A stretch of DNA of 64,000 nt from NCBI GenBank assembly GCA_947625835.1, contig CANQPY010000001.1:6763-70762 (forward strand). The letters are read 5' to 3'. Shown here one piece after another: positions 6,017-50,339 of the stretch. Source of the DNA: an uncultured Clostridia bacterium. GTDB taxonomy: Bacteria; Bacillota; Clostridia; TANB77; CAG-508. The position numbers and the translations under genes are program-made. Each line of letters starts with the position of its first letter. The stretch's first letter is position 1. A model generated the notes under the pieces. That model saw only the letters and a program-made list of their open reading frames with translations. It was not told the DNA's origin and did not search any database.

Positions 6017-7498
6017 ATGTTTAAATATAATGAAAGTTCTCAAACCTGTAGTTTCATACAAAATCTACTAAGATCAAAAAATGTTCCTATGCTTCCCATT
6101 TTGAGAGATCCTGAAGGGTTATTTAGTTCTAAGGGCACTACTAATGATTCGATAATCCCAAAAGGATTTTCATATATACACGATGGCTATTTTTATTTAG
6201 GGCAAGGTGATATAGAGGGTAAGCCTATACCACCACTAAGAAAAGAAAAATACATATTTGGAAATAAATATCCGAATATGACCAATAATTATATCCCAAA
6301 AGAAAGTTATTACAGTTCGGAATTACATGAATATCTTGGAGAATACTTAAGGGCATATAGAGACACTTATAGAGTAGACTTAATGGGTCTATATAATTGC
6401 TTTTCAAATAGACTAATCTCCAAAGTATCTCTTCCAATGATTAGAAGAGAACGCGATAGTTCCAGCGAAGCGGATGCGGGGCAGAAAACAACCTCTCTAT
6501 TTACCACATGGTATAAATTCAATGAGCCCAACAATAATTATAAAGTTACATGCTTTCCTATTAAATTTAATATGGAATATAAAATTAAAATATACGGTAG
6601 TATAAATGGTAATATCATTATTCAACCTATATTTTATTTTAATGGAGACTACCTAAGTTTATCCCCAGAAGGGGGAAACCCAGAAGCATCAAAAATCACT
6701 AAGCCCATAGTATTTGAACCACAAACACGTATCTATACTAACAGTATGACTTATGAATTAAATTTAAAAGATACTGCAGGTTATATTCTTCGAGATATTC
6801 AAAGTGCGGGAGATTTAACTGAAAGGGAATTAACTAAATATTTATTAGAGAATGAAAAGTATTTATATTTATTTATCCAGGTACCTCAATCACAAGAACT
6901 CCAGATAAGTGTTATTGAAGAAGCAGAATACTTTCAAGTAGTAAATAATACGCTCTTAAATTTAAAAGTAAATTATAATGTACCTTTTAGTGATAGACTA
7001 CTGGAATTTCTTACAGAGAATGTAATTACTCCCTATGATAGTATAAATCAAAATATAACAAGAATACAAACTATATTACTATCAAGCGATTTCAAAAAGA
7101 AATATTATAAAGAACTCATAGATAACCCCTTATATGTTCCTATATATAGCAGAACAACAGAGGGAAATAATCCTTATACAGAAGCTGAAAAACAGGATGC
7201 AGTTATAAGAGGGCATTATAAAAAATTAAAAAGACTTATTAACCCAAGTATTGAGGAAAAACAAAACAACGAGGGCGAAGATATTCAAGTTCCCCCTTTC
7301 AATATAATAGTAGCAAGTAAAGATGAAATTTACTCACCAATTCCAGGGGAATATGATGATACCATGAGAGTTCTTTTATATTTTATATTTACAAATATGG
7401 GCATTCCAGATTTTACAGGCTATGTGGATAAAGATGTAGAAGACTTATTATTAAGATGTGTGGGAGACAACTTAAAAGTAAAACTAAAGGAGATATAA
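6017..7498 (+). CDS. Hypothetical tail/baseplate-associated protein
   Basis: 493 aa ORF with RBS inside the baseplate module. Confidence 0.5.
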   Translation: MFKYNESSQTCSFIQNLLRSKNVPMLPILRDPEGLFSSKGTTNDSIIPKGFSYIHDGYFYLGQGDIEGKPIPPLRKEKYIFGNKYPNMTNNYIPKESYYSSELHEYLGEYLRAYRDTYRVDLMGLYNCFSNRLISKVSLPMIRRERDSSSEADAGQKTTSLFTTWYKFNEPNNNYKVTCFPIKFNMEYKIKIYGSINGNIIIQPIFYFNGDYLSLSPEGGNPEASKITKPIVFEPQTRIYTNSMTYELNLKDTAGYILRDIQSAGDLTERELTKYLLENEKYLYLFIQVPQSQELQISVIEEAEYFQVVNNTLLNLKVNYNVPFSDRLLEFLTENVITPYDSINQNITRIQTILLSSDFKKKYYKELIDNPLYVPIYSRTTEGNNPYTEAEKQDAVIRGHYKKLKRLINPSIEEKQNNEGEDIQVPPFNIIVASKDEIYSPIPGEYDDTMRVLLYFIFTNMGIPDFTGYVDKDVEDLLLRCVGDNLKVKLKEI

Positions 7499-25331: not shown

Positions 25332-26981
25332 ATGGGTAGGAAACCTAAACAAATACCTCAAGAATCATTATGGGGTGAAGAATTTAATTTACCACCACCT
25401 CAAGAAGAAGTAAAAAAAGTATTGAAAAAAGTAAATGATAAAACAGATGCCCAAAAAATCAAATCTAAATTAACACCACTATCAGAGAAAATAGAAATTA
25501 TTTCCCAAAATGTACATAAAGTATTAGGCCATTACAAAGACCAAATGGTAGTAATTAGGGATAAAGAAACCTTCCATAATTACATTAGTGCGGCTATTGA
25601 GCAAGGAATAATTGCTATAGATACTGAAACAGACAATACAGTTGATACAGTGGCTTGTACTTTAATGGGTTTGGTTATATATACTCCAGGCCAAAAAAAT
25701 GGATATGTGCCTGTACACCATGTAGATTATGTAACAAATGAACTACTCCCAAACCAACTAACAGAAAAAGATATAAGAGAAGAACTAAACAGATTATTAG
25801 ACAATAACACATATATAATAATGCACAACGCGATATTCGATATTCAAGTTATTTATACTACATGTGGTGTTTTCCTTCCATGCCACTGGGATACAATGGT
25901 GGGCGCAAGATTATTAAATGAGAATGAAAAATCATCAGGCTTAAAATATCAATATATAGATAAAATTGACCCTAACCAGCAAAAATATTCGATTGAGGAA
26001 CTATTTGAAGGCTTATCATATGCTATTTTTCCTCCAGAATTGTTTGCATATTATGCCTCAACTGATGGATATATGACCTATAAACTATATGAATATCAGG
26101 TAGAAGCATTTAAGGACCCAGAACAAGCAGGAATGTTTAGGATATTCAGAGAAACAGAAATGAATATCATTCCTATCTTGGCCAAAATGCAATTAAAAGG
26201 TGTAGCTTTTGACCACGATTATCAAGCACGACTATCTAAAAAATATAATAAAATATATGAAGAATGTGATGCTTTAGTAATGGAAGAACTACACAAATTT
26301 GATGATATAGTAGCCAAATGGAGATTAACACCAGAGGCTAATTACAAACCTCTCAATAGAAAGGGGGATGGGTTTAATAAATCCAAAAATGAGCAATTAG
26401 AAGATCCAATTAGTGCAGATTCACCCACGCAACTAGCAATATTGCTATATGACATATTAAAAGCACCTGTAGTATCTAAAGATAAGCCAAGAGGTACAGG
26501 GGTAGAAGAACTAAAAGCTTTACAAGCCAAGCTAAATTTACCTCTAATAGATCTCATATTAAAGAAAAGAAATATTCAAAAATTACTAAATACATTTGTA
26601 GATAAACTACCTGGAGATGTAAGTAAAGTGGATGATAGAGTTCATGCAAGCTTCGGTTCTGTCATGACTGACACGGGCCGTTTCAACTCTTCATCGCCTA
26701 ATTTGCAAAATATTCCCGCTAAGAATAAAGAGATTCGTTCAGTTTTTTGTGCAGGTAGAGCACAAGAAATAGAAAAAATATTTGATGGTTTCTTACATCT
26801 ATATGATTATGATGAAGTAGAAACCCAAAGAGGTTGGGTAAAAGCAAAAGATCTAAAAACAACAGATTCATTGGTAGTAGAAGATGGCATCCTTAAAATT
26901 GCGTCTATTAGAGATCTAAATGGTATAATTCAAGTGTTCCCAGAAGAGGAAGAAAATAAAGGAGTGGAACATGCAGCATAA
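25332..26981 (+). CDS. polA: Family A DNA polymerase, N-terminal part (3'-5' exonuclease, thumb, start of palm) with a Hint-like C-terminal extension
   Basis: 'IDTET', 'HNAIFD', 'YASTD', 'TGRFNSSSPNLQNIP', 'EIRSVFCA'. Confidence 0.9.
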   Translation: MGRKPKQIPQESLWGEEFNLPPPQEEVKKVLKKVNDKTDAQKIKSKLTPLSEKIEIISQNVHKVLGHYKDQMVVIRDKETFHNYISAAIEQGIIAIDTETDNTVDTVACTLMGLVIYTPGQKNGYVPVHHVDYVTNELLPNQLTEKDIREELNRLLDNNTYIIMHNAIFDIQVIYTTCGVFLPCHWDTMVGARLLNENEKSSGLKYQYIDKIDPNQQKYSIEELFEGLSYAIFPPELFAYYASTDGYMTYKLYEYQVEAFKDPEQAGMFRIFRETEMNIIPILAKMQLKGVAFDHDYQARLSKKYNKIYEECDALVMEELHKFDDIVAKWRLTPEANYKPLNRKGDGFNKSKNEQLEDPISADSPTQLAILLYDILKAPVVSKDKPRGTGVEELKALQAKLNLPLIDLILKKRNIQKLLNTFVDKLPGDVSKVDDRVHASFGSVMTDTGRFNSSSPNLQNIPAKNKEIRSVFCAGRAQEIEKIFDGFLHLYDYDEVETQRGWVKAKDLKTTDSLVVEDGILKIASIRDLNGIIQVFPEEEENKGVEHAA

Positions 26982-27024
26982 AATAAAAATTAGAAAACCA
27001 GAAAAGAAACTAGTTGGGGGTGAT
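26971..27024 (+). CDS. polA: Exon 1 of the DNA polymerase C-terminal subunit (MQHKIKIRKPEKKLVGGD)
   Basis: GGAG RBS 6 nt before ATG 26971; joins 27295 to restore motif A 'LVGGDFSQLE'. Confidence 0.85.
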
Positions 27025-27294
27025 TAAATGAAGTCCCTATGTGTAGAGATATGCATAGGTATCCCATTGAATTGCTGGAAACTCCTAACGTAAAGCCGAG
27101 GACAACCAGCAGCCAAGCCTCTTTACTGAGGAAGGTTCAACGACTATCTCGCAAGAGAGTAGAAAGTAAGTACTTTCGAAGTGGTGGGTATCCATAATAA
27201 ATGGATAAAGATATAGTCTAAACACCTGTGAAAATAGGTGGGGATAAAAATAATTATCCCATTATAGTGTAACGAACTATAATAAATGCATGTG
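27025..27294 (+). ncRNA. Group I self-splicing intron (270 nt, no ORF)
   Basis: 5' exon ends in U and intron ends in G. IGS GAAGUC pairs with exon GAU and UUC. Conserved elements AATTGCTGGAAA, AACCAGCAGCC, TTCAACGACTA, AAGATATAGTC; P7 is GACTA 27142-46 / TAGTC 27214-18. Removal restores the frame. Confidence 0.92.
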
Positions 27295-28398
27295 TTCTCT
27301 CAACTAGAAGTAAAAACTGCAGTCTATAGTTCCAATGATCCTGACATGCGTAAGACATATGAAGATGGTCTAGACTTGTATTCATTAGTTGGTTCCATGG
27401 CATATAATAAAAAATATGAAGAATGCTTGGAATTTTATCCTGAAGGAACTGAACTAGAAATAGAAGGTAAAAAAATAGTTTGCGGGCGAAAAGAAATAAC
27501 TAACGAAATTGGAAAAAAATATCGTCAATCTTCAAAATCTATTCTGATAGGTAGTATATATCAAAGAGGTGTTCCCTCTATTGCTGAACAAATAAAGAAA
27601 ACCCCAGAAGAAACAAAAGAAATAATGGATAATTTCTACAAGGGTTTTCCTACCATGACTAAATGGTTTGAGGATAGTAAGAAATTTGCTTTAAAATATG
27701 GATACATGGATAATGCGGTTGGCAGAAGAAGAAGACTGCCTGCAGCATTGCTCCCCAAATATTCCATTACTACCTCAGTAACATCAGGTTCAGAAGGTTT
27801 TAATCCATTACTAGGGTGCAGCAACAAAATAGATACCACTTTAATTGATAAATATAGAAAAAAATTAGAAGAAAGAGAATTCATATCTGCTAAAGATTAT
27901 GAAGAGATTAAAAAGCAGGCAAAAGCTGAAGGTGTGGAGATTCACAATAATGGTGGACTGATAGCACAGGCGTTGAGGCAGTGTGTAAATTTCCAAGCTC
28001 AGAGCTTGGGCGCGGATATAGTCAAATTCGCAATGATTTTAGCAGATAAAGATCCAATTCTTAAAGATCTTGGTTTTGAAATGTTAATCCAAGTCCATGA
28101 TGAGCTGATTGGTGAATGCCCTGCAGAAAATGCAGATAAAGTAGCAAAAAGATTATCAGAATTAATGTCCTCAACTGCGGAAAAAATGACAGATAATATT
28201 CCTTTTCCGGTAGATTGTTATGAAGTAAATAATTGGTATGAAGATGAATTAAATACTTCTCTTCAAACACTGATGATGCATCATAAAGAACTATCTCAAG
28301 AAGACTTATATAAATTAGCATGTGAAGAACACCAAGAATTACTTCCAGAAGCTATCCATGATGTAATATTTGAGGGAAAAGAATTAAGAATTTCTTAG
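27295..28398 (+). CDS. polA: Exon 2 of the DNA polymerase C-terminal subunit (motifs A, B, C)
   Basis: 'FSQLE', 'RQSSKSILIGSIY', 'GRRRRLP', 'NFQAQS', 'QVHDEL'. Confidence 0.9.
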   Translation, partial: FSQLEVKTAVYSSNDPDMRKTYEDGLDLYSLVGSMAYNKKYEECLEFYPEGTELEIEGKKIVCGRKEITNEIGKKYRQSSKSILIGSIYQRGVPSIAEQIKKTPEETKEIMDNFYKGFPTMTKWFEDSKKFALKYGYMDNAVGRRRRLPAALLPKYSITTSVTSGSEGFNPLLGCSNKIDTTLIDKYRKKLEEREFISAKDYEEIKKQAKAEGVEIHNNGGLIAQALRQCVNFQAQSLGADIVKFAMILADKDPILKDLGFEMLIQVHDELIGECPAENADKVAKRLSELMSSTAEKMTDNIPFPVDCYEVNNWYEDELNTSLQTLMMHHKELSQEDLYKLACEEHQELLPEAIHDVIFEGKELRIS

Positions 28399-28456: not shown

Positions 28457-28618
28457 ATGGATAAAAGACTTATTAATTTTGAAATAGATGAGGAACTAAG
28501 AAAGAAAATAAAGAAAGAAGCGTATGATTTAGATTTATCTATTTCTGCAGTACTTAGGCATATCATAGAAAATTATTTTAATGCTAAGGAAGAGAAAGAT
28601 GAGAGTGTCAGGATTTGA
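28457..28618 (+). CDS. Ribbon-helix-helix protein (not in ORF track): MDKRLINFEIDEELRKKIKKEAYDLDLSISAVLRHIIENYF...
   Basis: AAGGAG RBS; beta-strand 'INFEI' plus two helices; paralogs at 35141 and 51090. Confidence 0.8.
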   Translation: MDKRLINFEIDEELRKKIKKEAYDLDLSISAVLRHIIENYFNAKEEKDESVRI

Positions 28619-30539
28619 AGCGCTTGTAGATAGGATAACCAAAGAAGAATTATACCAATATGTAGTGGTAGAACGCCATACCAATAGAGAAGCAAAACAA
28701 CATTTTAATATTGGGTCTAGTGATACTCTTCTGAAACTTTTAAAATATTATGGGTTAAAAAAACCCACGAAGAAAGAAATATTACTTACCAAGGCATCAA
28801 AGGAAGAACTTTACCAATATTATATAGTTGAAAACCATACATTTAAGGAGTGCATAGAAAAATTCAATTTGGGTAGTTTCCCACAACTTAAAAAACTATG
28901 TAACTACTACAATATTGTTAAAAATGAGCCTATAGAAGAGATAATAAAAAGAGTACCTAAAAATGAAATAATTAGATATTATATAGAAGAAAAACACAGC
29001 CATGATGAAACTCTTGAATATTTTAATTTAGGTGCTGATGCTTTTTATTATCTTTTAAAGCTATATGATATAGTTAAAGAAAGATTCAATTGGGGAAAAT
29101 TTCAAAATAAACCCACAAAAGAAGCATTATATAATTTATATGTTGTACAAAATAAAACAGCGATAGATATATCCGCAGAATATAACATAAGTAAAGGATT
29201 AATTATTCGACTTCTCAAAGAATATGGTATAAGCTTAAAAACCATGTCAGAAAATGTCAGGTTGGGTAGAGAAAAAGTTTATAAATTATATGGATCTAAA
29301 GAAAATTACTGTAAAGCAACAAACAATAAAGTACAGCAAACTATGCTAAAAAAGTATGGTTTTAATACATATTCTCAGATGCCTGATTATAATGATAGAG
29401 TTAAATCAACTAACTTGAAAAAATATGGCGTAGAGTACTATACCCAATCTCAAGAGAATAGAGATAAAATTAGTGAAAAACTAAAAGAAAAAATTAATGA
29501 ATTAGGGTATGCAAAACTAAGTCAAGCCTCATTAGATGAAAAATTGCTCAAATTACTATATAATGAAGAGGAATCTGTAAAATTCCTAAATACATTTAAA
29601 GAACCCCCCACACCATTTCAACTTCAACAACAATTTAATTGTGGACAAACAGTTATAAGCCATTGGATAGAAAGATGCAATTTACAACCCTATGTAAGCT
29701 ATGTGGTAAGCAACCCTGAAAAAGAAATAGAAGAATATCTAAAATCCCTAAATGTTTGTTACCAAATGCACAGTAGGCTTACTTTAGATAGTAAGAAAGA
29801 GCTAGATTTTTATCTGCCCGACTACAATATAGGTATCGAATTTAATGGTACTTATTGGCATTCAAGTTTGATTAAAGATAAAAATTACCATTATAATAAA
29901 TCAATAGAGGCTGAAACTAAAGGAATAAGAATAATTCATATTTGGGAGTATGAGTGGGAAGATTCAAAACAACGTGAGAAAATATTATCTCTCCTAAAGA
30001 TAGCATGTAATAAAGTAAATACAAAAATTTACGCACGTAATTGTACAATTAAAGAAATTACAAATAGAGAAGCAAAACCTTTTAACGAAGCCAACCATTT
30101 ACAGGGGCATAGAAATGCCCAAGTAACCTATGGTTTATTTTATAATGATAGATTAGTACAACTAATGTCCTTTAGTAGAACTAGGTATAATAAAAACCTA
30201 ACTGGTGGTAATGATTGGGAAATAATCAGAGGATGTCCGGCAAGCAACAACATAGTTGTTGGTGGTGTAAGTAAGCTATTTAAACATTTTCTTAAAGAAT
30301 ACAATCCAGATCATGTTTTTAGTTACTGTGATTTCAATAAGTTCGATGGTAGAGGCTATGAAGCAATTGGTATGAAATTTGCAGGGTATACTGGACCAGA
30401 TATGAAATGGTTACTACAAAATGGCCAGGTAGTTTCTAGACAGCCTTCAAAGCATAAAGAACTGAAAGAGATCTCTAAAGCTCAGCTTTGGGGGGCAGGC
30501 AGTAAAAAATATATGTGGGAGAAACCTACGCAGAACTAA
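28599..30539 (+). CDS. Free-standing homing-type endonuclease (N-terminal helical repeats, Vsr/PD-(D/E)XK domain, C-terminal accessory domain)
   Basis: Four 'KEELYQYYIVENH'-type repeats, 'KKYG' repeats, 'ELDFYLPDYNIGIEFNGTYWH', 'IHIWEYEW'. Confidence 0.8.
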   Translation: MRVSGFEALVDRITKEELYQYVVVERHTNREAKQHFNIGSSDTLLKLLKYYGLKKPTKKEILLTKASKEELYQYYIVENHTFKECIEKFNLGSFPQLKKLCNYYNIVKNEPIEEIIKRVPKNEIIRYYIEEKHSHDETLEYFNLGADAFYYLLKLYDIVKERFNWGKFQNKPTKEALYNLYVVQNKTAIDISAEYNISKGLIIRLLKEYGISLKTMSENVRLGREKVYKLYGSKENYCKATNNKVQQTMLKKYGFNTYSQMPDYNDRVKSTNLKKYGVEYYTQSQENRDKISEKLKEKINELGYAKLSQASLDEKLLKLLYNEEESVKFLNTFKEPPTPFQLQQQFNCGQTVISHWIERCNLQPYVSYVVSNPEKEIEEYLKSLNVCYQMHSRLTLDSKKELDFYLPDYNIGIEFNGTYWHSSLIKDKNYHYNKSIEAETKGIRIIHIWEYEWEDSKQREKILSLLKIACNKVNTKIYARNCTIKEITNREAKPFNEANHLQGHRNAQVTYGLFYNDRLVQLMSFSRTRYNKNLTGGNDWEIIRGCPASNNIVVGGVSKLFKHFLKEYNPDHVFSYCDFNKFDGRGYEAIGMKFAGYTGPDMKWLLQNGQVVSRQPSKHKELKEISKAQLWGAGSKKYMWEKPTQN

Positions 30540-30656: not shown

Positions 30657-31502
30657 ATGCAGATAACAGACGATGATCTTTACTTCTATTATGGAAGCAA
30701 ATATTTAAACCTAAATAGTAGATATAAACAAGCGCCAGATTTATTTAATGAGGAAAGAAAAAAGCTATCTAAGGGAGGAGGCTCTAGAGAAGACATAATA
30801 GCATATGCTAAAAAATCTCTAAGGGCCCCGCTGCCCAATGAACAAGAATATATTAAGAGGGAAGATTGGCTTCCCTTTGAAGATTTAACTGGTGAAAGAC
30901 AAGAAGTATTAGATAACCCTATTTGGAATAAAACTCAAAAATTTATATTTGAAAATTTTAAACCCTCATCTACTTCTCTTATTATTCAAAGATGCAGCAG
31001 CAGAAAGCCTTATATAGATAATGGTAATTACAAATATACCAAATTATTGCAGGAACACAAACTATGCGACCTTGCTGTTGCTTCATTAGAGATAATTCCT
31101 ATAAATTTTACCATTTATTATCCATTTAGGCAGTATGATTGGAATGATAAATTTGAAACTCCAGAACTGACAGAATATGCTATAAATAGAAAGACAAATA
31201 GAATTATCCAATTTATAGATCATTTTGGGTATCAAAAGATACTTATTCTAGGGCCAGGGTTTGAACATGACACTTATTATAAAACCATTACAGATAAACT
31301 AAAAGAACATTATGGAACTTCAAAGGAAATTCATTTTGTAATGGATGAAGAAACGACAAATAAGTGTATCGAAACTATGAATGGGTACAAAGGATTAGCA
31401 AAAGTCAGATACCCCAATCTTAAACCTACTCAAGAAAGAATTTGCAGTTTGTTAGGGGTAGAAAACCCTCAAAAGAAGATTGAGAAGGTAAAATTATGGT
31501 AA
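30657..31502 (+). CDS. ArcS/DUF5591-like protein (archaeosine synthase-like)
   Basis: 'QRCSSRKPY' and 'SLEIIP...YYPFRQYDW' match the ArcS 'PCS.RKPY...VP...YP...YD' signature; que genes nearby. Confidence 0.6.
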   Translation: MQITDDDLYFYYGSKYLNLNSRYKQAPDLFNEERKKLSKGGGSREDIIAYAKKSLRAPLPNEQEYIKREDWLPFEDLTGERQEVLDNPIWNKTQKFIFENFKPSSTSLIIQRCSSRKPYIDNGNYKYTKLLQEHKLCDLAVASLEIIPINFTIYYPFRQYDWNDKFETPELTEYAINRKTNRIIQFIDHFGYQKILILGPGFEHDTYYKTITDKLKEHYGTSKEIHFVMDEETTNKCIETMNGYKGLAKVRYPNLKPTQERICSLLGVENPQKKIEKVKLW

Positions 31503-32418: not shown

Positions 32419-32895
32419 ATGGCAGTAGAAAAACATATTCCTAAAGATGCAGAAGGCTATATTACACCAAACCATTATTACGGGCAAAATTATCAATTGC
32501 TTGACGTAATTGAAGATCAGCTATCCCCAGAGGGTGTAAGAGGATTTACAAAAGGCTTAATTTTCAAATATCTATATGGATGCGTAGATGATACAACATT
32601 GCGCAGATGTACAAAGGCAAAATACTATCTTGATGAATTAATTATTTATTGTAAGAATCATGGGGAAACAATCCCTGAAGATAATAACCTTAAACCCAAA
32701 TATTATAATAAGGGAAAAATTGAAGTTATTGATATCCTTGAAGACCAACTATCAAAAGAGGAATTAAAAGGTTTCTATCTTGGTATGGTGATTAGATATC
32801 TTACAAGAGAGGGAAAAAAGAACGGTTTGGAAGATCTTCTAAAAGCAAAATACTATCTTGATAGATTCATTACAAACTTGGAAGGTGGTTTATAA
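32419..32895 (+). CDS. DUF3310 protein (T7 gp1.7-like), two tandem domains
   Basis: 'PNHY...KYL...KAKYYL' and 'PKYY..GKIEVID...RYLTR.GKKNGLEDLLKAKYYL'. Confidence 0.8.
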   Translation: MAVEKHIPKDAEGYITPNHYYGQNYQLLDVIEDQLSPEGVRGFTKGLIFKYLYGCVDDTTLRRCTKAKYYLDELIIYCKNHGETIPEDNNLKPKYYNKGKIEVIDILEDQLSKEELKGFYLGMVIRYLTREGKKNGLEDLLKAKYYLDRFITNLEGGL

Positions 32896-33143
32896 TGAAT
32901 CCCATTGAAATTGCAGGTATTATAGCATCCCTATTTATTGTTGTTTCTATGTGTTTTAAGACAACAACATTTAAGGGTACTATCATTATGAGAATTATAA
33001 ATGGTTTAGGTAGTATAGTATTTGTAGTTTATGGGGCTTTACTTCCAGCACTTGCAACACTTATTACTAATGCTTGTGCCTTTGTAATAAATCTATTTTA
33101 TCTAATAAAGGAAATTAAAGATCATTATAAAAACAATCAATGA
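32895..33143 (+). CDS. Small 3-TM membrane protein (YgjV / PQ-loop-like)
   Basis: 'GIIASLFIVVSM', 'RIINGLGSIVFVVYG' hydrophobic pattern. Confidence 0.65.
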   Translation: MNPIEIAGIIASLFIVVSMCFKTTTFKGTIIMRIINGLGSIVFVVYGALLPALATLITNACAFVINLFYLIKEIKDHYKNNQ

Positions 33144-33147
33144 ATAT

Positions 33148-33286
33148 TGCATAAATAGATGAACAATCATAAAATTGGATTTAAAAAGTCCAGGGACGTG
33201 TTACACTAACCTTACTGTCCATAAACCTAAAGGTGGCTTAAACGATTCAAGGTCGGCCACTGTATCTTTAGTGGTCGACCTTTTTT
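33148..33286 (+). ncRNA. Structured non-coding RNA candidate (possible attenuator or riboswitch) upstream of queC
   Basis: Several hairpins, a strong terminator and a competing antiterminator helix; no coding potential. Confidence 0.45.
33249..33286 (+). terminator. Intrinsic terminator
   Basis: AAGGTCGGCCACT...AGTGGTCGACCTTTTTT. Confidence 0.85.
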
Positions 33287-33376
33287 AATATATGTATATA
33301 AGGGTATTTTCGATATCTTCATACCCATAATAATTCTTCTAAGATATAATGATTATTTAGGAGACAAAAAAGTAAA

Positions 33377-34174
33377 ATGAAGTGTGTAGTAAGTTTAAGT
33401 GGTGGTAGAGATAGTGCTACCTGCCTTGGTGTTGCAGTTGATAAATATGGTGCAGAGAATGTGTATGCCATGGGATTTGAATATGGTAGTAAACATCCTC
33501 AAGAACTAGAGCATGCAAAGAAAATTGCAGCCTATTATAATGTACCTTATCAAATTGTTACTATCAACCCAGAAATTTTTAATGGTTCCACATGTACCTT
33601 ACTTCAAGGATCAGAAAAAGAAGTACAAAAAGGTAAGACATATACTGAAATACTAGCAGAAAAAGAAGGTAAAGTTGATACATATGTACCCTTCAGAAAT
33701 GGTTTATTTTCAGCATATGTGGCAGCTAAAGCGGAAAGTTTAGTACAGCAATTTGATGAAGATGTAGTAGTTATGTTAGGGCAGCACGCAGATGATAGTG
33801 GCTATTACATTGATGAACATGGTAATGAAATGTTAGATGAATCAAAAGCTGCCTATCCAGATTGTACAGTTTCATTTGTAAAAGCATTTGAAAAAGTGGT
33901 GGAAGTTAGTTCAGTAGGTAGAGTTCATTACGAAGCACCCTTTGTTAAGATGCACAAATGGGAACTAATAAAAATGGGGTTAGGGCTTAAGAAGAGGGTT
34001 CCATATGAACTGTGCTTTAGTTGTTACGACCCTGTTTATGAAAATGGCGAATGGGTGGAATGTAAGAACTGTGCTACTTGTTTAGATGTAAAACAAGCAA
34101 TGGATAAAACACTTGATAAAATTCAAAGTGAAAATCCAGAACTATATGAAGAAGTAAAATATTTAAGAAATTAA
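33377..34174 (+). CDS. queC: 7-cyano-7-deazaguanine synthase
   Basis: 'SGGRDS', 'YGSKH', 'TYVPFRN', 'YPDC', 'SCY...C..C.TC'. Confidence 0.93.
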   Translation: MKCVVSLSGGRDSATCLGVAVDKYGAENVYAMGFEYGSKHPQELEHAKKIAAYYNVPYQIVTINPEIFNGSTCTLLQGSEKEVQKGKTYTEILAEKEGKVDTYVPFRNGLFSAYVAAKAESLVQQFDEDVVVMLGQHADDSGYYIDEHGNEMLDESKAAYPDCTVSFVKAFEKVVEVSSVGRVHYEAPFVKMHKWELIKMGLGLKKRVPYELCFSCYDPVYENGEWVECKNCATCLDVKQAMDKTLDKIQSENPELYEEVKYLRN

Positions 34175-34199: not shown

Positions 34200-34997
34200 A
34201 TGGAAAAGGTAAAGAACTTTTTTGTAAGCGTAGGAAGAAAAATCAAGCAGGGCTTCTACAATGAATTTGTAGGTACGTGGAAGGGAATTACGAAGGAAAA
34301 GATCAGTTTTTCCATTGTATTACTTGTAATTGCTAATATTTTCTTCTTATTAATTAGTAATATTATTGCGGTTAAGACAATAGTATTTGGTAGAGTAAAT
34401 GGGTTACAGTTTTCTGTGCCCTGCGCCGTATTATGCTATAGTTTTTCGATTATTATCAGTGATTTGTTAGCAGAGTTAGATTTCAAATGGACACGTCGTA
34501 GTTGCCATATAGGTTTCTTTTTGAACCTATTAATGGTCGCTATTTTCGAACTTTCAATCGTAATTCCAGGCGAAGTAGGTGGTTTCCAAGAAGGTTTAGG
34601 GGTATTAGGTACTACTTGGTTTATGCTCATCGGAAGCGTGCTCAGCTTCTACATTGGTGATTTGGTGAACGATAATGTATTTAAGAAACTTAGGAATAAA
34701 GATGGTGAAGGTAATGGTAAATTAATTAAACGCTGTATGCTAAGTACAGTATTTGGTCAATTATTGGATGCTACAATTTTCATTTTCTTAAGCCTTCAAC
34801 TTCTTCCAGGCTTATTTATGGAAAGTGGGCCATTTACAGCACTTAATTCATCACTTGCAGATCCTATTAGCTGGGCTAATATGGGAGTTATGATTGGTCT
34901 ACAATGGGTAATAAAGGTACTTATTGAGTTTATAGTATCACCCCTTGTAATTCTTATTTGTAATAAGTATAAGAAATCTCATCAGGAAGAACTCTAA
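34200..34997 (+). CDS. yhhQ: Queuosine precursor transporter (VUT/YhhQ family)
   Basis: 'ISNIIAVK', 'SDLLAE', 'STVFGQLLDATIF'; multi-TM; adjacent to queC. Confidence 0.85.
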   Translation: MEKVKNFFVSVGRKIKQGFYNEFVGTWKGITKEKISFSIVLLVIANIFFLLISNIIAVKTIVFGRVNGLQFSVPCAVLCYSFSIIISDLLAELDFKWTRRSCHIGFFLNLLMVAIFELSIVIPGEVGGFQEGLGVLGTTWFMLIGSVLSFYIGDLVNDNVFKKLRNKDGEGNGKLIKRCMLSTVFGQLLDATIFIFLSLQLLPGLFMESGPFTALNSSLADPISWANMGVMIGLQWVIKVLIEFIVSPLVILICNKYKKSHQEEL

Positions 34998-35019
34998 TTT
35001 AATATTAATAAATACATAG

Positions 35020-35056
35020 AGGGCTCCTATATTATTAAGTGTAGGAGCCCTAATTT
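35020..35056 (+). terminator. Terminator-like hairpin after yhhQ
   Basis: AGGGCTCCTA...TAGGAGCCCT. Confidence 0.7.
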
Positions 35057-35140
35057 ATAAAAGAAAACTAAAGAAAATAAGAGAAGTCAAAAGGTAATGT
35101 GCTAAATTAGATGAAAATGCCTTTTGAAGGAGATAATAAA

Positions 35141-35302
35141 ATGGATAAACATGCAGTAAACTTTGAACTTCCCGAAAATATTTTCCTTCAGCTTAAACAA
35201 TTAGCAGAAGATAATGATAGAAGTATCGCTTCTCAAATAAGAACAATCATTATCTCCTACTTGAAGGAGAATAATAGTGACGCACCAGGAATTCAAAACT
35301 AA
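35141..35302 (+). CDS. Ribbon-helix-helix protein
   Basis: 'VNFELPE...LKQLAEDNDRSIASQIRTII'; preceded by TGCTAAATTA (35100) and AAGGAG. Confidence 0.75.
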   Translation: MDKHAVNFELPENIFLQLKQLAEDNDRSIASQIRTIIISYLKENNSDAPGIQN

Positions 35303-36430: not shown

Positions 36431-36841
36431 ATGCAAAAATGGGATGTATACTTAGCAAAAGTAAGATTTGAAGAAGATCACCGCAGATATAAAAGAAGAC
36501 CTGTACTTATCTTAAATCCTTCCACAGTACTTGTATTATCTTTTAAAATAACCTCTCATGAGCCCCGTACAAATTTTCCAGGAGAATACCAAATTATTAA
36601 ATGGAGAGAAGCAGGATTACTTAGACCTTCTGTAATAAGATGTTCTCAAATTATTGATTTGTCTCGTAGAGATATTAGAAGATACTTAGGTAAATTACAA
36701 CCAGAAGACATCAGAGGAGTACAAGAAATAGTAAGAAGAGAACTGCCAGAATATTCTCATTTGGTAGAGAAATTTCAATTATCTGATGATGATTCTTTTA
36801 TCCCAGATGATAATCCAATGTTTGATAGAAGTATATTTTAA
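36431..36841 (+). CDS. PemK/MazF-family toxin
   Basis: 'WDVYLAKVRFEE...KRRPVLIL', 'ITS', 'WREAGLLRPSVIR', 'LGKLQPED'. Confidence 0.85.
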   Translation: MQKWDVYLAKVRFEEDHRRYKRRPVLILNPSTVLVLSFKITSHEPRTNFPGEYQIIKWREAGLLRPSVIRCSQIIDLSRRDIRRYLGKLQPEDIRGVQEIVRRELPEYSHLVEKFQLSDDDSFIPDDNPMFDRSIF

Positions 36842-41077: not shown

Positions 41078-41268
41078 GTTTGTTTGAATGGTTTAAGAAT
41101 ATTTTTCTTCCTAACGCTTCAGATGGAACACTAGCGATTCTTTTTTATCTTTATGATAAATACTATGGAGATAGGAAACTAAGCTGTGAGGAGATAGATT
41201 TTATTCGGGAGGAAATGCATTTAATTAAAACACTTCCTTACAAGGGCAATGATTTATGGAAGAATTAG
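41074..41268 (+). CDS. Hypothetical protein
   Basis: Short ORF with coupled start/stop overlaps. Confidence 0.45.
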   Translation: MSLFEWFKNIFLPNASDGTLAILFYLYDKYYGDRKLSCEEIDFIREEMHLIKTLPYKGNDLWKN

Positions 41269-43540: not shown

Positions 43541-44098
43541 ATGGTAATTAGAAAATTATATAGAATTGAATCAGCACATACAGTAAGAAATGCAGTGTCA
43601 CAGAGATGTTCAGAAAATTATCACGGACATAGCGGTGTTATTGAAGTGTTTCTAAAATCAAACCACCTTGATAATGCGGGAATGATTTATGATTTTGGTG
43701 CATTCAAAAACACTATTGGTTCTCTTATAGATATGTTTGACCACAGTGTTCATCTTTGGAAAGATGATGGTCCTGAATGTATTGAATTTTTCAAGAAATA
43801 TAATAAAAGATGGATTATGCTCCCTTGTAATCCTACTGCAGAAAATTATTGTATTTTATTTAGAGATCTTATTAATGAAGTCCTTTTAGAGCTTCATATG
43901 CTAAATAATTTTCAAAATGGAGAAGGTGCAGTATATTGCAGTGGAGTCAGATATCATGAAACTACTACTGGATATGCTGAAAGTGATGAAAGTGATCCTG
44001 TATTATTTCATTTCAAGGATGTTGAATTTTCACATCAAACGCTTATTGAATGTTCTCCAGAAATTTCCTATATAATTAGTCTGGCTAAGGATCTTTAA
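43541..44098 (+). CDS. queD: 6-carboxy-5,6,7,8-tetrahydropterin synthase
   Basis: 'SAH', 'C..YHGHS', 'GMIYDFG', 'FDH', 'NPTAEN', 'ET'. Confidence 0.9.
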   Translation: MVIRKLYRIESAHTVRNAVSQRCSENYHGHSGVIEVFLKSNHLDNAGMIYDFGAFKNTIGSLIDMFDHSVHLWKDDGPECIEFFKKYNKRWIMLPCNPTAENYCILFRDLINEVLLELHMLNNFQNGEGAVYCSGVRYHETTTGYAESDESDPVLFHFKDVEFSHQTLIECSPEISYIISLAKDL

Positions 44099-44561: not shown

Positions 44562-44921
44562 ATGGACAGAATATTCGTAAGTTGGGATCAAGTAGAACAA
44601 TACATAGCAGACTTAAAAGAGCTTAATAACAAGCAGCACTGGGCAGGTGTGTATGGTATTCCAAGAGGTGGGCTTGTTCTTGCAGTTATGATTTCTCATA
44701 GATTACATATCCCATTTTTAGGTGCCCCATGCGAAGGTTGCCTTATTGTAGATGATATTGCTGATACAGGTAGAAGTTTATATCATTACACAGAGAATGA
44801 AACTCAACATAACAAATACTATCTTAGTACTATGTACTACCAGGAGAGAAGTATTGTAGAGCCTGATTATTGGTACTTACAAAAGCATGATAATTGGATT
44901 GTATTCCCGTGGGAGGAGTAA
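44562..44921 (+). CDS. Purine phosphoribosyltransferase (Gpt-like)
   Basis: 'GIPRGGL', PRPP loop 'LIVDDIADTG', 'WIVFPWE'. Confidence 0.9.
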   Translation: MDRIFVSWDQVEQYIADLKELNNKQHWAGVYGIPRGGLVLAVMISHRLHIPFLGAPCEGCLIVDDIADTGRSLYHYTENETQHNKYYLSTMYYQERSIVEPDYWYLQKHDNWIVFPWEE

Positions 44922-44923
44922 AT

Positions 44924-45118
44924 ATGAGAATTTTAGATAATACAAACGATAAGTTTGAGAGAGATTTTGAATTAAGGATGTTAGAAGGCAATATAAACAG
45001 AATCTGTGTCTCAGATGATCCTCTCGAAGTTACTAGAATGGTAGGATTTGCATGCGATAGAATTAACATGTTGGCTCAGTACAGGATGTTGCAACTACAG
45101 GAAAGGGAGGTTAAATAA
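44924..45118 (+). CDS. Hypothetical protein
   Basis: GGAGGAG RBS before ATG 44924. Confidence 0.5.
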   Translation: MRILDNTNDKFERDFELRMLEGNINRICVSDDPLEVTRMVGFACDRINMLAQYRMLQLQEREVK

Positions 45119-45120
45119 AA

Positions 45121-45819
45121 ATGCTAATCAGTGAAATTTTTTCTAGTATTGATGGAGAAGCAAAAAGGGCAGGTGAACTTGCAACTTTTGTAAGAACCAT
45201 CGGATGCAATCTCAAATGTGAATATTGCGATTCAAAATATACCTGGATAAAAGAGCCCACTAGTAAAGAGATGACAGTGGCTGAAATTGTAAAGGAATGC
45301 AAGAAACTAGGCAATCATAATATTACATTTACTGGGGGTGAGCCTCTCATCCAGAAAGATGCTGATGAACTCATTATGAGATTGGCAGAAGAAGGGTTTG
45401 ATGTTAGTATTGAAACAAATGGCGCTGTGGATTTTACTACACGTCCTTGGTTTAAACCAGATGGTGAGGTAGAATATGATAGTCTCTTTTCTCATATTTG
45501 GGTATGTGCTGACTATAAAGGCTATGCAAGTGATATGACCTCCTACATGCTGTCATTTTCAAAATTTGCCCAACTTCGTTCAAATGATGTTCTTAAATTT
45601 GTTGTAGGATCCCAGGAAGATCTTGAACTTGCATTTGAAGTAACCAAATATATTAGGGAACACGGCTGTAATTGTTATGTTTATTTATCTCCAGTATTTG
45701 AACAAATTAAACCTGTAGAGATTGTAGATTTTATGAAGGAACATAATATGCAGGGTAAAATTAGAGTTCAACTCCAGCTACATAAAATCATTTGGGATCC
45801 TCAACTTAGAGGAGTATGA
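45121..45819 (+). CDS. queE: 7-carboxy-7-deazaguanine synthase (radical SAM)
   Basis: 'EIFSSIDGE', CxxxCxxC, 'TGGEP', 'IETNG', 'QLHK'. Confidence 0.93.
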   Translation: MLISEIFSSIDGEAKRAGELATFVRTIGCNLKCEYCDSKYTWIKEPTSKEMTVAEIVKECKKLGNHNITFTGGEPLIQKDADELIMRLAEEGFDVSIETNGAVDFTTRPWFKPDGEVEYDSLFSHIWVCADYKGYASDMTSYMLSFSKFAQLRSNDVLKFVVGSQEDLELAFEVTKYIREHGCNCYVYLSPVFEQIKPVEIVDFMKEHNMQGKIRVQLQLHKIIWDPQLRGV

Positions 45820-45858: not shown

Positions 45859-46686
45859 ATGCTAAAGACAAACGATAAAGAATTAATTGAATTTGTCAAG
45901 GAAAGATATTTTAAGAGGTTCCCAAATCATACTCTAAAACAATTTAAGAGTGATTACGCACAATGGGAACTGATGCCTGTATTTAAAGCATGTGAAAATT
46001 ATTACGAAATCAATACAGATTATTCTGATAGATATAAATTAGCAGATGTTGAGGGTAAAGATGTTGTCCCTAAGATTCCAGACTTAACCCCAGAGGTTCA
46101 CTGGATTATGAGAATATCAACTCAATACTTCTTGACCAAGGCATTTGAGGCAATGAAAATTGATCTGGATGATCCTAACCTTAAAGAAGAAGTAGTTGGT
46201 AAAGGTACACCTGGACGAGTAGCAAAGATTTGGACTGGGAATGACCCTACAGATACAACTGAACTTTTAAGTGGAAGGTATAATAAGGAACCATATATTG
46301 CAACTTTCCCTAATGAAGGTAAATCAGAAATTATTACTAAAGAAGTAGATTTAACAGCAGTATGCTCACACCATTTTCTTCCATTTACTTCACTTGAAGG
46401 TGGTAAATGTATTATTAAATATAAACCAGATAAATTTATCCTTGGTATTTCTAAACTTGGTAGGTGGGTTCATTGGGCAGCAACACGTGCATGGCTTCAA
46501 GAAGATCTAACAAAATATATTGGAAAGGGTCTTTGTAGAATCACAGGTACAAAAGATGTTTATGTAAGACTTGAAAATATCCAGCACTCTTGCGAGAGAT
46601 ATAGAGGTGCACATCAATACCAGGGTAATTTAACCACAGAATTTAAGTCAGGAATTTTTGAAGGAAATCCAGATTTGTGTAAGTAA
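45859..46686 (+). CDS. folE: GTP cyclohydrolase I
   Basis: 'TPGRVAK', 'CSHHFLPF', 'GISKL', 'QE', 'HSC..RG'. Confidence 0.92.
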   Translation: MLKTNDKELIEFVKERYFKRFPNHTLKQFKSDYAQWELMPVFKACENYYEINTDYSDRYKLADVEGKDVVPKIPDLTPEVHWIMRISTQYFLTKAFEAMKIDLDDPNLKEEVVGKGTPGRVAKIWTGNDPTDTTELLSGRYNKEPYIATFPNEGKSEIITKEVDLTAVCSHHFLPFTSLEGGKCIIKYKPDKFILGISKLGRWVHWAATRAWLQEDLTKYIGKGLCRITGTKDVYVRLENIQHSCERYRGAHQYQGNLTTEFKSGIFEGNPDLCK

Positions 46687-47290: not shown

Positions 47291-47336
47291 TCTCATTTTC
47301 AATTATATAAAATTGTATATACTATTGGAGGTACAT

Positions 47337-47876
47337 ATGTTAAAAAGCGCAAATTATATATACGAAAATAATATTATAGCAGATGAAACAAACACAACCA
47401 AACAGCATTGTAAAAAAGCTCAAGTTGGGGTAGATTGTACATTAAAAGAAGTGTACAAAATTAAAGGATTTGGTAGAATATATAGTGACAAATCTGTCAT
47501 TCCAGATTATACACTGGTAGATAAAATAAGTATTGGTTGTGATAAAACAGGTTGGATTCTTGACCAAGGTACATACATTGTAAAACTAAACGAGGGGGTT
47601 CAATTTGGTCCAAACGATACAGGTTGGTTCTATCAAAGAAGTTCCCTAAACAGAAGTGGTGCAGAAATAATTTCTAGTGTTTGGGATCCTGGATTTACAA
47701 CACAATTTGGGGATAAAATTGAAGCACCCACTCTTCGACTTAATGTACATGCAGATAAAATTATAATTGAAGAAAATGCCAGAATTGCCCAATTAGTAGT
47801 ATTTGAAAACGAAGATACAACCCAATATGATGGACAATTCCAAGGTGGAAGAACTAAAAGTAAATTGGAGGATTAA
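47337..47876 (+). CDS. Trimeric dUTPase / dCTP deaminase family protein
   Basis: 'RSSLNRSG', 'WDPGF', 'RIAQLV', 'YDGQFQ'. Confidence 0.85.
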   Translation: MLKSANYIYENNIIADETNTTKQHCKKAQVGVDCTLKEVYKIKGFGRIYSDKSVIPDYTLVDKISIGCDKTGWILDQGTYIVKLNEGVQFGPNDTGWFYQRSSLNRSGAEIISSVWDPGFTTQFGDKIEAPTLRLNVHADKIIIEENARIAQLVVFENEDTTQYDGQFQGGRTKSKLED

Positions 47877-47877
47877 C

Positions 47878-48321
47878 ATGTTTGAAGGTGACACAGGTTG
47901 GCCACAAGATAATAATGTTGCAGATTTAACAGAACTTAAAAATGAAATGAACAAAAAGGACAATAAACAAACCGTAAAAAATATTGTAAATAAAAAATTG
48001 ACAATAACTGACAAACCAATAAGCTATGATGAAATTTTTAGTCCAGAAGATATAGTGGGCCATCCTGAAATGATAAATCACCCAAAACATTATGGTGGTG
48101 AAGAAAACCCATATGAAGCAATAAAAATTATAGAAGCACTGAATCTAAACTTTAATCTGGGGAATTGCCTTAAATATATATGCAGATTAGGGAAAAAACC
48201 AAGCGGCAATCTTTCAAACGATGAAAAAACGCTAGAGGACTTAAAGAAAGCCGCATGGTATATGCAAAGAGAAGTTGAAAGATTCCAAAAAGAATTGGAG
48301 GCAAAGAAGAAACAATGTTAA
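47878..48321 (+). CDS. DUF3310 protein
   Basis: 'INHPKHY', 'FNLGNCLKYICR.GKK', 'EDLKKAAWY'. Confidence 0.85.
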   Translation: MFEGDTGWPQDNNVADLTELKNEMNKKDNKQTVKNIVNKKLTITDKPISYDEIFSPEDIVGHPEMINHPKHYGGEENPYEAIKIIEALNLNFNLGNCLKYICRLGKKPSGNLSNDEKTLEDLKKAAWYMQREVERFQKELEAKKKQC

Positions 48322-49436
48322 TCAAAACCAAAGATCTAAATAAAATAGCAGAAAAACTTCTAAAAGCAGTTGATACAAATGAACTAACCCAACTTAGTAC
48401 TGCTTTAGAAATGGAAGTAACTGATGGTTCTTTACTTCTCTCTGTATCTAATAAGGAATATTTTGTTACTGTAAAATTAAGGGATAACCACTATAATGAA
48501 GTTTTCCATGCTTCGGTAAATGCAAGTCTATTCCTAAAACTAATTTCACAAATTACAACAGATGATATTGAATTAGAATGTACAGATAAATATCTTCAAG
48601 TTAAAGGAAATGGTTCTTACAAGATACCTTTAATATTCAAAGATGAAAGTCTTTTAGTGCTTGATAAAATTGAAATTAACAACCCCACAATTTCTATGGT
48701 TATTCCTAATGCTGTATTTCAAAGCATCAATAAATACAATAGTAAGGAACTTACAAAGGGGTACATTTATAAACCAGTACAAAAATATTATTATGTAGAT
48801 GAAAAGGGATGTATTACATTTACCACAGGAGCATGCGTAAATAAATTCAATCTTGACCAACCTGTCAGAATGTTATTAAATAGTAAATTAATAAATCTTC
48901 TTAAACTTTTTGATGATGAATCAATTAATTTCACTTTAGGGTATGATTCATTAAGTAATAATATTATACAGACAAAAGCTAAATTTGAAACACCCACAAC
49001 ATCTATTACAGCTATTTTACAATGTGATGATACGATGTTAAATTCCGTACCAGTAAACAATATTAGGGGAATGGCCGAGGCTTCTTACCCTTATTCAGTC
49101 ACTGTAAATAAGGAATTAATTATTCAAGCAATAAACAGGATAATGTTGTTCAATAAATCAAGCAAAGATAATAATGTTGCCACGTTTGTATTTGGAAAAT
49201 CAAATTTAATTATAAAAGATAGAGGAGATGAAAATTCAGAAGTAATCACTTACCTATCTGATTGTCAAGAATTAGAAAATAACCAATACGAAGCAATGTT
49301 GGATCTTAACGATTTGAAGGCAACATTGCAACTGTGCGATGAATCCCATCTTACATTAAAGTTTGGTGCAGCAAGAGCATTTATTATTGCTCGTACAAAT
49401 ATTATAAATGTTATCCCACAATGCGTGGTTAGTTAA
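48315..49436 (+). CDS. DNA polymerase III beta-like sliding clamp
   Basis: 373 aa, three-domain alpha/beta pattern resembling DnaN; DnaX-like loader at the window end. Confidence 0.7.
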   Translation: MLIKTKDLNKIAEKLLKAVDTNELTQLSTALEMEVTDGSLLLSVSNKEYFVTVKLRDNHYNEVFHASVNASLFLKLISQITTDDIELECTDKYLQVKGNGSYKIPLIFKDESLLVLDKIEINNPTISMVIPNAVFQSINKYNSKELTKGYIYKPVQKYYYVDEKGCITFTTGACVNKFNLDQPVRMLLNSKLINLLKLFDDESINFTLGYDSLSNNIIQTKAKFETPTTSITAILQCDDTMLNSVPVNNIRGMAEASYPYSVTVNKELIIQAINRIMLFNKSSKDNNVATFVFGKSNLIIKDRGDENSEVITYLSDCQELENNQYEAMLDLNDLKATLQLCDESHLTLKFGAARAFIIARTNIINVIPQCVVS

Positions 49437-49463
49437 AATAAAAAAACTATGAGGTAAATAAAA

Positions 49464-49847
49464 ATGAGATACGAAAAAATGAAAGATTTTCCCTTTGTAG
49501 CTGATCCAGATCTAATATCACCTGAAAAGATAATAGATGTGGGCAATGGTTATTTATTGCAGCAAGTTGTAGAAAATGGGTTTGTTGCTTCAATCTTCCA
49601 AGCCTATGATGGCAATGAAAAATTAAAAAATGAATATCTTTACCTTGTTTACCCAGATGATGATAGCGAAGAAGTTGATATAGAAGGTGCTGCAGAGTCT
49701 CGTCTTTTAGGAGAAGTAGAGATTGAGAATGGGGATAAAAAGACTGCATGGACTAAAACAGTAAATACCATCAATGAAAGATTTAAGACCATGTGCAAAG
49801 CCATAGAAGAAGCATATATTGCAGTTACTAGCAAAAAAGTTAGTTGA
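49464..49847 (+). CDS. Hypothetical protein
   Basis: GAGG RBS. Confidence 0.55.
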   Translation: MRYEKMKDFPFVADPDLISPEKIIDVGNGYLLQQVVENGFVASIFQAYDGNEKLKNEYLYLVYPDDDSEEVDIEGAAESRLLGEVEIENGDKKTAWTKTVNTINERFKTMCKAIEEAYIAVTSKKVS

Positions 49848-49872
49848 TTCTTTCCCACGCCTCTATTATAAT
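49841..49872 (+). promoter_or_regulatory. Sigma70/SigA-like early promoter
   Basis: TAG-TTGATT-N17-TATAAT. Confidence 0.75.
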
Positions 49873-49904
49873 ATAGGAAAGAAATAAAAGGAAGAGAACT
49901 AATT

Positions 49905-50339
49905 ATGGAAGAAGATGGCCCGTCGTTTCCGTCGACGCTAAGCAAAACTAGAAGAGCCTATTTTAAAGCTGCAGAGAGTATATCTACTCTTAGCAATCAC
50001 AGGTGCAGAGTAGGATGTGTAGTGGTTAATAAGCACAAGATTATCAGTTCTGGACACAATAGTGCAAATAAGACCCATGCATTCCAAGCTAGACTAGATA
50101 AAAGAACCTTTGGGTGCGAATGTGCAGGATTTCTCCATGCAGAAACAGATGCTCTTCTCCCTCTAATTAAAAATAGAGTTGATCTTTCTAATGCATCTAT
50201 TTATGTGTATAGAGAGAAAAAAGACAATACTAAGGGCATGGCCAGGCCATGCCCTAGATGTATGTCCATAATAAAAAGTTGTGGTATCAAATATATTAAT
50301 TATTCTACAGCAGATGGATTTGCAGAAGAGGTAATTTAA
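49905..50339 (+). CDS. Zinc-dependent cytidine/deoxycytidylate deaminase-family protein
   Basis: 'HAE' and 'PCPRC'. Confidence 0.85.
   Translation: MEEDGPSFPSTLSKTRRAYFKAAESISTLSNHRCRVGCVVVNKHKIISSGHNSANKTHAFQARLDKRTFGCECAGFLHAETDALLPLIKNRVDLSNASIYVYREKKDNTKGMARPCPRCMSIIKSCGIKYINYSTADGFAEEVI

Follow-up and report, generated by a model that had tools for sequence, protein, structure and literature searches.

Upstream of queC and yhhQ the window, by which we mean the whole 64,000-nucleotide stretch of DNA analysed, holds a small leader whose pseudoknot covaries among related phages, whose expression platforms follow a recurring logic, and whose copies are associated with 7-deazaguanine genes. 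We read this leader, with a probability of roughly two in three, as a divergent phage-borne riboswitch of the preQ1-I type that would switch off queC-yhhQ at the level of transcription; in structural terms it is probably a preQ1-I variant in which L1 is long and P2 resembles that of type III. A sequence-only reading of the same DNA had put forward a variant phage switch that senses preQ0 or preQ1, and that proposal has gained comparative support from the recurrence of the element, its compensatory changes, its platforms and the cross-detection of QueT/QueE leaders. The other suggestion made there, an independent RNA of ~125 nt, is a reading that nothing in our data requires.

Layout of the queC leader

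The leader occupies a 233-nt gap between the ORF of an 82-aa membrane protein and queC. In window coordinates the features are:

32895-33143, ORF of the 82-aa membrane protein, upstream border of the gap
33147-33175 (+), candidate promoter proposed from the sequence: -35-like TTGCAT at 33147-33152, 17-nt spacer, -10 box TAAAAT at 33170-33175
33175-33193 (+), inverted repeat TTGGATTT-AAA-AAGTCCAG, which folds; arms 33175-33182 and 33186-33193
33194-33220 (+), P1 hairpin: GGACG 33194-33198 with UGUCC 33216-33220, top pair G33198-U33216
33199-33215, parts of the P1 loop: L1 33199-33208, P2 5' strand ACCUU 33209-33213, L2 A33214 and C33215
33221-33229 (+), L3, A-rich AUAAACCUA, containing the invariant CUA 33227-33229
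33230-33234 (+), P2 3' strand AAGGU; its AAGG 33230-33233 pairs with loop CCUU 33210-33213
33232-33261 (+), antiterminator: GGUGGCU 33232-33238 with GGCCACU 33255-33261; G33232-U33234 common to P2
33249-33286 (+), intrinsic terminator: 14-bp stem 33249-33262/33269-33282 (7 G-C), 6-nt loop, T run 33281-33286
33345-33350, TATAAT, 3' of the terminator
33359-33363, ribosome-binding site AGGAG of queC
33377-34174 (+), queC (Pfam QueC, 8.5e-38)
34200-34997 (+), yhhQ (Pfam Vut_1, 1.7e-25; NCBIfam queuosine precursor transporter, 4.1e-13, at 49.6 bits slightly below the cut-off of 50.95)
35020-35051, terminator-like hairpin 3' of yhhQ

The stem at 33194-33220 is P1 of an H-type pseudoknot, in which the loop bases CCUU pair with the tail AAGG that follows CUA. 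The sequence-only reading had located the GGAC/GTCC stem (GGACG/UGUCC in the RNA), the GGTGGCT:GGCCACT complementarity and a strong terminator with T6, and all three are present; the CCUU:AAGG pairing, through which the stem belongs to a pseudoknot, was absent from it. Its terminator and antiterminator were said to be mutually exclusive, and the fold of a transcript ending before the terminator 3' arm is indeed exactly the antiterminator described. The 147-nt stretch folds better than 200 of 200 shuffled sequences (z = -3.74), and the antiterminator duplex reaches -11.2 kcal/mol, a value equalled by 5 of 1000 shuffles. The terminator begins 105 nt past the stop codon of the 82-aa gene.

Transcription would start near 33182, judging from the candidate promoter, which scores below the 4-of-6 rule used in our promoter scan and is hence unlisted by it. 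TATAAT-like boxes, read by eye from the sequences, stand 10-23 nt 5' of P1 in 8 of the 11 elements described below, and in a relative from run X6 the DNA upstream of 33162 is divergent, yet TTGTAT occupies the -35 position at the same spacing. Two features that had been singled out in this region were borne out only in part. The TGCATAAATA motif is present and overlaps a possible -35 box, but it is not enriched in the window (20 matches with at most one mismatch against 17.25 expected); the hairpin TGGATTT-AAA-AAGTCCA exists at 33175-33193, but no counterpart was seen upstream of 10 related elements. This hairpin overlaps the candidate -10 box, straddles the presumed start site and may lie outside the RNA. 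Beyond the terminator, the TATAAT at 33345-33350 could be a source of uncontrolled transcription, which counts against the switch model.

In contigs from other gut metagenomes the block 33162-33292 is retained and flanked by breakpoints at both ends, and some relatives replace the entire stretch (joints 33058 or 33016 to 33301). Among the differences listed, some affect L1 (33205), the linker and, in the terminator, the loop and one base pair of the stem; relatives from runs X6 and X7 have A in place of G33262, turning a G-U pair of the terminator into A-U, and loop base 33266 is also changed. Run X1, the likely source sample, contains a minor strain variant (depth 9, compared with 52) in which 420 other bases are inserted in 33125-33162, separating the 3' end of the 82-aa gene from the leader.

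Recurrence and covariation in related phages

Relatives were sought from QueC in viral and metagenome collections, and two covariance models were used, R1 of five phage copies and R2 of nine. Between them the models pick out 9 elements, on 6 contigs of uncultured phages. Two looser copies were recognized by eye, and the whole set is a small one (9 + 2 elements on 8 contigs, several of them related). The elements, their next genes and their platforms are:

Window: queC; terminator
L007: queC; terminator
L012:2376: queC; terminator
L127: queC; terminator
L128: queC; terminator
L158:1141-1189: 81-aa homologue of the window's 82-aa gene; terminator
L012:1608: yhhQ; ribosome-binding site
L158:1501: 7-codon uORF, then yhhQ; ribosome-binding site
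L002:2009: queF (7.6e-71), then queC; ribosome-binding site
L004, looser copy by eye, without model match: queC; ribosome-binding site
L011, looser copy by eye, without model match: 82-aa homologue and queC; ribosome-binding site

All 11 elements thus stand 5' of queC, queF, yhhQ or the linked 82-aa gene. Across the four jumbo phage records that are complete or nearly so, every model match at E <= 0.02 lies at genes of these kinds, and one 233-kb phage has three leader copies within 4 kb. Between the second copy of that phage and yhhQ lies the uORF MKIRDGT (7 codons, L158:1565-1588); the AAGGAG of the leader serves this uORF, and yhhQ has a separate ribosome-binding site.

Six of the 11 platforms are terminators and five have the ribosome-binding site buried. 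The six terminator-type leaders all fold as the P1 hairpin plus the terminator, and when they are cut 5' of the terminator 3' arm, the terminator 5' arm pairs in every case (6/6) with the P2 3' strand and the bases that follow it. Compared with shuffled sequences, this complementarity is unusual in four copies (1-16 of 1000) and near chance in the other two (L007, 165/1000; L158:1141, 118/1000). The other five leaders have as their P2 3' strand the AAGGAG ahead of the next start codon. An aptamer that occurs with two kinds of platform, both of which predict repression once the pseudoknot has formed, is what usually marks a riboswitch.

The sequence-only reading had pointed to covariation upstream of homologous phage queC genes as a way to examine the element, and such covariation is found. 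In alignment A5, which comprises 9 phage sequences fitted to the model, 89.5% of the cells are paired and 10 of the 13 pairs change on both sides, which none of 500 shuffles matches; these and the following counts overstate independence, because few sequences are aligned and several of them are related. Changes on both sides affect 5 of 7 pairs in P1 (92% of cells paired) and 5 of 6 in P2, and when the partners were slid by 1-3 columns as a control, pairing was only 30-52%. P2 is absent from the structure of the model, and therefore its support is not due to fitting. Adding bacterial leaders to the alignment raises the number of pairs that change on both sides to 11 of 13. Moreover, L158:1141, the copy closest to the window, has CCACU:AGUGG in the columns of CCUU:AAGG, so that the pairing is kept even without a sequence resembling a ribosome-binding site.

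Several unpaired positions are conserved as well. CUA is identical in all nine phage elements and is preceded by C or U in eight of them (C in the window; A only in L002). The C directly 5' of the P1 3' strand is kept in 9/9 copies, as UC in seven and as AC in the window and L158:1141, and UU stands directly 3' of the P1 5' strand in seven, with UG in the window and L158:1141. The window has a loop of 17 nt with an L1 of 10 nt; loops of the other copies measure 12-16 nt (12 nt in L012:1608 and L158:1501). P1 is 6-9 bp long in most other copies, a G-U pair stands at or just below the top of P1, and the alignment contains no conserved hairpin between P1 and the P2 3' strand.

Within the collections searched, this form of the element appears to be found only in phages. 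Most queC relatives have no gap or leader (L003, L005, L006, L008, L010, L131, L132); L002 at first seemed gapless, and its copy was then found 5' of the queF-queC pair. In 150 genomes of the host family R1 gave only weak chance matches and no element; a recurrent 23-bit match there falls inside a conserved coding sequence, which we read as spoVS. RF00522 found nothing in 100 host-family genomes, and a DNA search of host-family genomes gave short AT-rich matches only. No close DNA relative turned up in the phage collection. The nearest cultured QueC proteins are those of the Streptococcus phages Dp-1 and MS1 (~42% identity), and the annotation of Dp-1 has no such leader; QueC alignment against the genome contig collection returned no relatives.

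Searches of the viral contigs with exact sequences and patterns were likewise unproductive. The exact terminator sequence had 0 matches. The pattern GACGTKT...YCTAARGR gave 101 matches, 0 of them with a QueC, YhhQ or 82-aa relative nearby, and one that we inspected lies inside a gene on the opposite strand. For CCTTCATG...TCTAAAGG there were at least 120 matches, chance-like throughout among the matches listed, and for ACTGTCNATAAACCTAA there were 13, the sole real one being the known G202 copy. Weak R1/R2 matches in the window itself, at 35016-35079, 41192-41241 and 7467-7495 (E 0.09-0.9), were attributed to chance.

Relation to known preQ1 riboswitch classes

Models of the known classes do not recognize the phage copies. 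RF00522 gave no match at E <= 10 to the window copy (cmscan and a direct search that included the window's genome), nor to the copies in L002, L004, L007, L011, L012 and G201-G204, and cmscan with preQ1-II (RF01054) and preQ1-III (RF02680) gave none at E <= 10 in the window or in the other copies; the phage copies fall short of the Rfam gathering threshold of RF00522, 39 bits. The sequence-only reading had named searches with these three models and had spoken of a loose resemblance to class I or III. For class I, "only loosely" is right because RF00522 gives no match; a likeness to class III finds no support, RF02680 being without a match by cmscan. However, Rfam cmscan also gives no match on the E. 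coli yhhQ leader, an experimentally validated type III preQ1-I riboswitch according to PMC10622847, and the failure of RF00522 therefore weighs less. At E <= 0.001, RF00522 matched only B. subtilis among 14 control genomes.

Searching the opposite way makes the relationship clear. When R2 was applied to 150 genomes of the host's class, 7 matches were obtained at E <= 0.05, of which 4 lie before QueT (Pfam 1e-41 to 6e-45) and 1 before a QueE-like radical SAM gene. The best RF00522 matches in four of these genomes fall on the same sites at 24-29.5 bits, below threshold, and the L317 site has no RF00522 match at E <= 1. R1, built from the five phage copies only, scores 18.5-27.1 bits on the bacterial sites of R2, scores that are not independent of R2 because R2 had picked those loci; both phage models taken together give 18.5-30.5 bits on the QueT leaders of L314, L315, L317 and L318. 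The QueT/QueE leaders of L314, L315, L317, L318 (about 1501-1550) and L319 have the loop UUCGAGACCUUC and the tail AAAACUAAAGGAG. By their sequences, these leaders from the class of the host resemble preQ1-I riboswitches of type I, and Rfam annotation would miss them all. In a joint alignment, phage and bacterial leaders share the loop start UU, the loop end ACCUUC and the tail AAAACUAAAGGAG, so that the 3' half of the phage loop and the phage tail align with those of the bacterial QueT leaders.

In the window the P2 5' strand lies at the 3' end of the loop, a position that it is not known to take in types I and II. The phage loop is A/U-rich where type I has CGAG, so that the P2 known from types I and II cannot form, and the covarying pairing is CCUU:AAGG instead. 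The window loop, at 17 nt, also exceeds both the 12 nt of type I and the ~9-13 nt expected of preQ1-I in general, for which a P1 of ~5 bp would be the norm. Nevertheless, 7 of the 9 phage copies resemble the type I riboswitch of C. antarcticus, as described in PMC8752633, in their UU...UC flanks and in a CUA within an A-rich tail. In that description the ligand of type I contacts A30 and C31 within the ACUA of L3, and in 8 of 9 phage copies the base before CUA is not the A30 equivalent. PMC11625349 states that the specificity C is preceded by U in type I and by A in types II and III, and that preQ1 classes II and III form an HLout pseudoknot, with P4 embedded in class II and a distal platform in class III.

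The likeness to type III, as represented by the E. coli yhhQ leader in PMC10622847, extends to the H-type pseudoknot in which loop CCU pairs with the AGG of an AAGG tail, to the AC just 5' of the P1 3' strand in the window, to the A-rich variable linker between P1 and P2, to the control of yhhQ, and to the lack of an Rfam cmscan match. The covarying helix CCU:AGG beside the specificity C is P2 as described for type III in that source. By the same source the E. coli leader differs in having an L1 of UUC and a 9-nt loop (10 and 17 nt in the window), UU rather than UG after P1, and a G-C-rich P1 rather than one with a G-U top. Further differences are the CUA before AAGG and the terminator in the window, type III being described as translational in PMC10622847 and PMC11625349. 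R1 gave no match on the E. coli yhhQ leader. In regulatory layout the element is closer to the type II switch of B. subtilis queC (see PMC11625349), likewise a transcriptional OFF switch 5' of queC in which an antiterminator competes with the pseudoknot; unlike that switch, it has a different make-up of loop and P2, and RF00522 matches B. subtilis and not the phage copies.

Pathway context, mechanism and alternative readings

Other genes of the pathway lie elsewhere in the window:

30657-31502, DUF5591 protein
43541-44098, QueD-like
45121-45819, QueE-like
45859-46686, FolE

The phage probably makes preQ0 or a derivative of it for DNA modification. No queF was found in the 64-kb window, and for this reason we infer that preQ0 is a likelier ligand than preQ1 for this phage. 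The gap 5' of queE (44922-45120) contains a small ORF and no leader. Between queD and queE lies a truncated-looking ORF of 119 aa (44562-44921) resembling xanthine phosphoribosyltransferase (1.3e-12), and dCTP deaminase-like and dCMP deaminase genes are found nearby (region 47313-50339); these genes suggest a wider remodelling of nucleotide pools. Elsewhere, a group I intron (RF00028, 89 bits) at 27012-27240 splits a family A DNA polymerase gene into the ORFs 25332-26981 and 27286-28398, which are followed by a homing/HNH endonuclease ORF (28581-30539; PHROG 3339, 3.8e-83). A PemK/MazF-like toxin ORF (36431-36841, 1.1e-11) and a small Arc/ribbon-helix-helix ORF ~1.1 kb upstream of it (35111-35302) may form a toxin-antitoxin-like phage pair.

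The 82-aa protein belongs to a conserved family of ~82 aa with three transmembrane segments that adjoins queC or yhhQ in many related phages; relatives of the window ORF (32895-33143) are found at L004:2670-2918, L005:2419-2664, L008:28-273, L011:812-1102 and L158:1256-1501. Its best matches among solved structures, over the full length, are the SemiSWEETs 4x5m (E 0.016) and 4rng (E 0.036). Homologues lie downstream of a leader copy in L011 and in L158 (81 aa in the latter). From the leader copy upstream in these two phages and the adjacency to queC/yhhQ, it follows that this SemiSWEET-like protein may be a transporter for the uptake of a 7-deazapurine. Further relatives of the protein (L172-L178) yielded no additional leader copies.

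According to our preferred reading, the queC-yhhQ leader transcript would start near 33182 and the nascent RNA would fold P1 (33194-33220). Abundant preQ0 or preQ1 would stack between P1 and P2 (33209-33213 : 33230-33234), where C33215, just 5' of the P1 3' strand, would read the ligand. With AAGGU locked in P2, GGUGGCU (33232-33238) would be unavailable to the terminator 5' arm, the 14-bp terminator would form, and transcription would end near 33286. With little ligand present, the antiterminator would form instead and queC-yhhQ would be transcribed.

The same pseudoknot-terminator switch might respond to another ligand, such as CDG, an amido or other 7-deazapurine, guanine, or two stacked molecules as in type I. 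This would fit the C or U in the tail that replaces the type I contact A30, an L1 much exceeding that of any described type, the UG...AC flanks of the window against UU...UC in 7/9 copies, and a use of the pathway for DNA and not tRNA, as indicated by the DUF5591 protein together with the full folE-queDEC set. However, queC, queF and yhhQ, the genes controlled, form the classic preQ1 regulon, the C 5' of the P1 3' strand is kept throughout, and the phage models cross-detect QueT leaders, so we consider a different ligand unlikely. That a protein of the phage or its host binds the conserved pseudoknot, or that the ribosome reads it, with no metabolite involved, is in our judgement quite improbable: the family is small, found only in phages and without an Rfam family match, which speaks for such a reading, but its architecture, flanking bases and gene set are all those of preQ1-I, transcriptional and translational platforms on one aptamer are typical of riboswitches, and an unsystematic look beside the copies revealed no conserved regulator gene.

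A simpler view would be that the upstream operon ends in an ordinary terminator, that queC has a separate promoter and that the upstream stem is incidental. The terminator does lie only 105 nt past the upstream stop (33143), a TATAAT is available at 33345-33350 for queC, and some relatives do without the stretch altogether; but in unrelated contexts, some of them without a terminator, stem and pseudoknot reappear ahead of genes of the same kinds and show compensatory changes, and the antiterminator overlap is found in 6/6 copies, which makes this view very improbable. Terminated riboswitch transcripts that act in trans are known in other bacteria, and the strong terminator near the presumed promoter would yield a transcript of ~105 nt (about 33182-33286) that could serve as a trans-acting small RNA besides or in place of cis control. 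We give this idea hardly any weight: translational copies lack the terminator, and the conserved part is therefore the aptamer and not a discrete RNA. Returning to the preQ1-I-type OFF switch, a bolder version of it would see a phage-restricted subclass in which the loop is enlarged and P2 has moved to its 3' end, a pocket adapted to preQ0 or to a different 7-deazapurine meant for DNA, and a feedback on jumbo-phage hypermodification that includes the 82-aa protein; this is possible, though rather doubtful.

We found no literature joining riboswitches with phage clusters of the DpdA type, in a search that covered material other than subscription journals and supplements. If the RNA binds preQ0 or preQ1, phages with 7-deazaguanine DNA carry their own metabolite sensors for the pathway, and the smallest known riboswitch fold would extend to a form that current catalogues (Rfam) miss. 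The element would also offer a compact natural switch of the terminator type, with a pseudoknot helix that tolerates full replacement (CCUU:AAGG to CCACU:AGUGG), and it hints at what the 82-aa SemiSWEET-like protein does.
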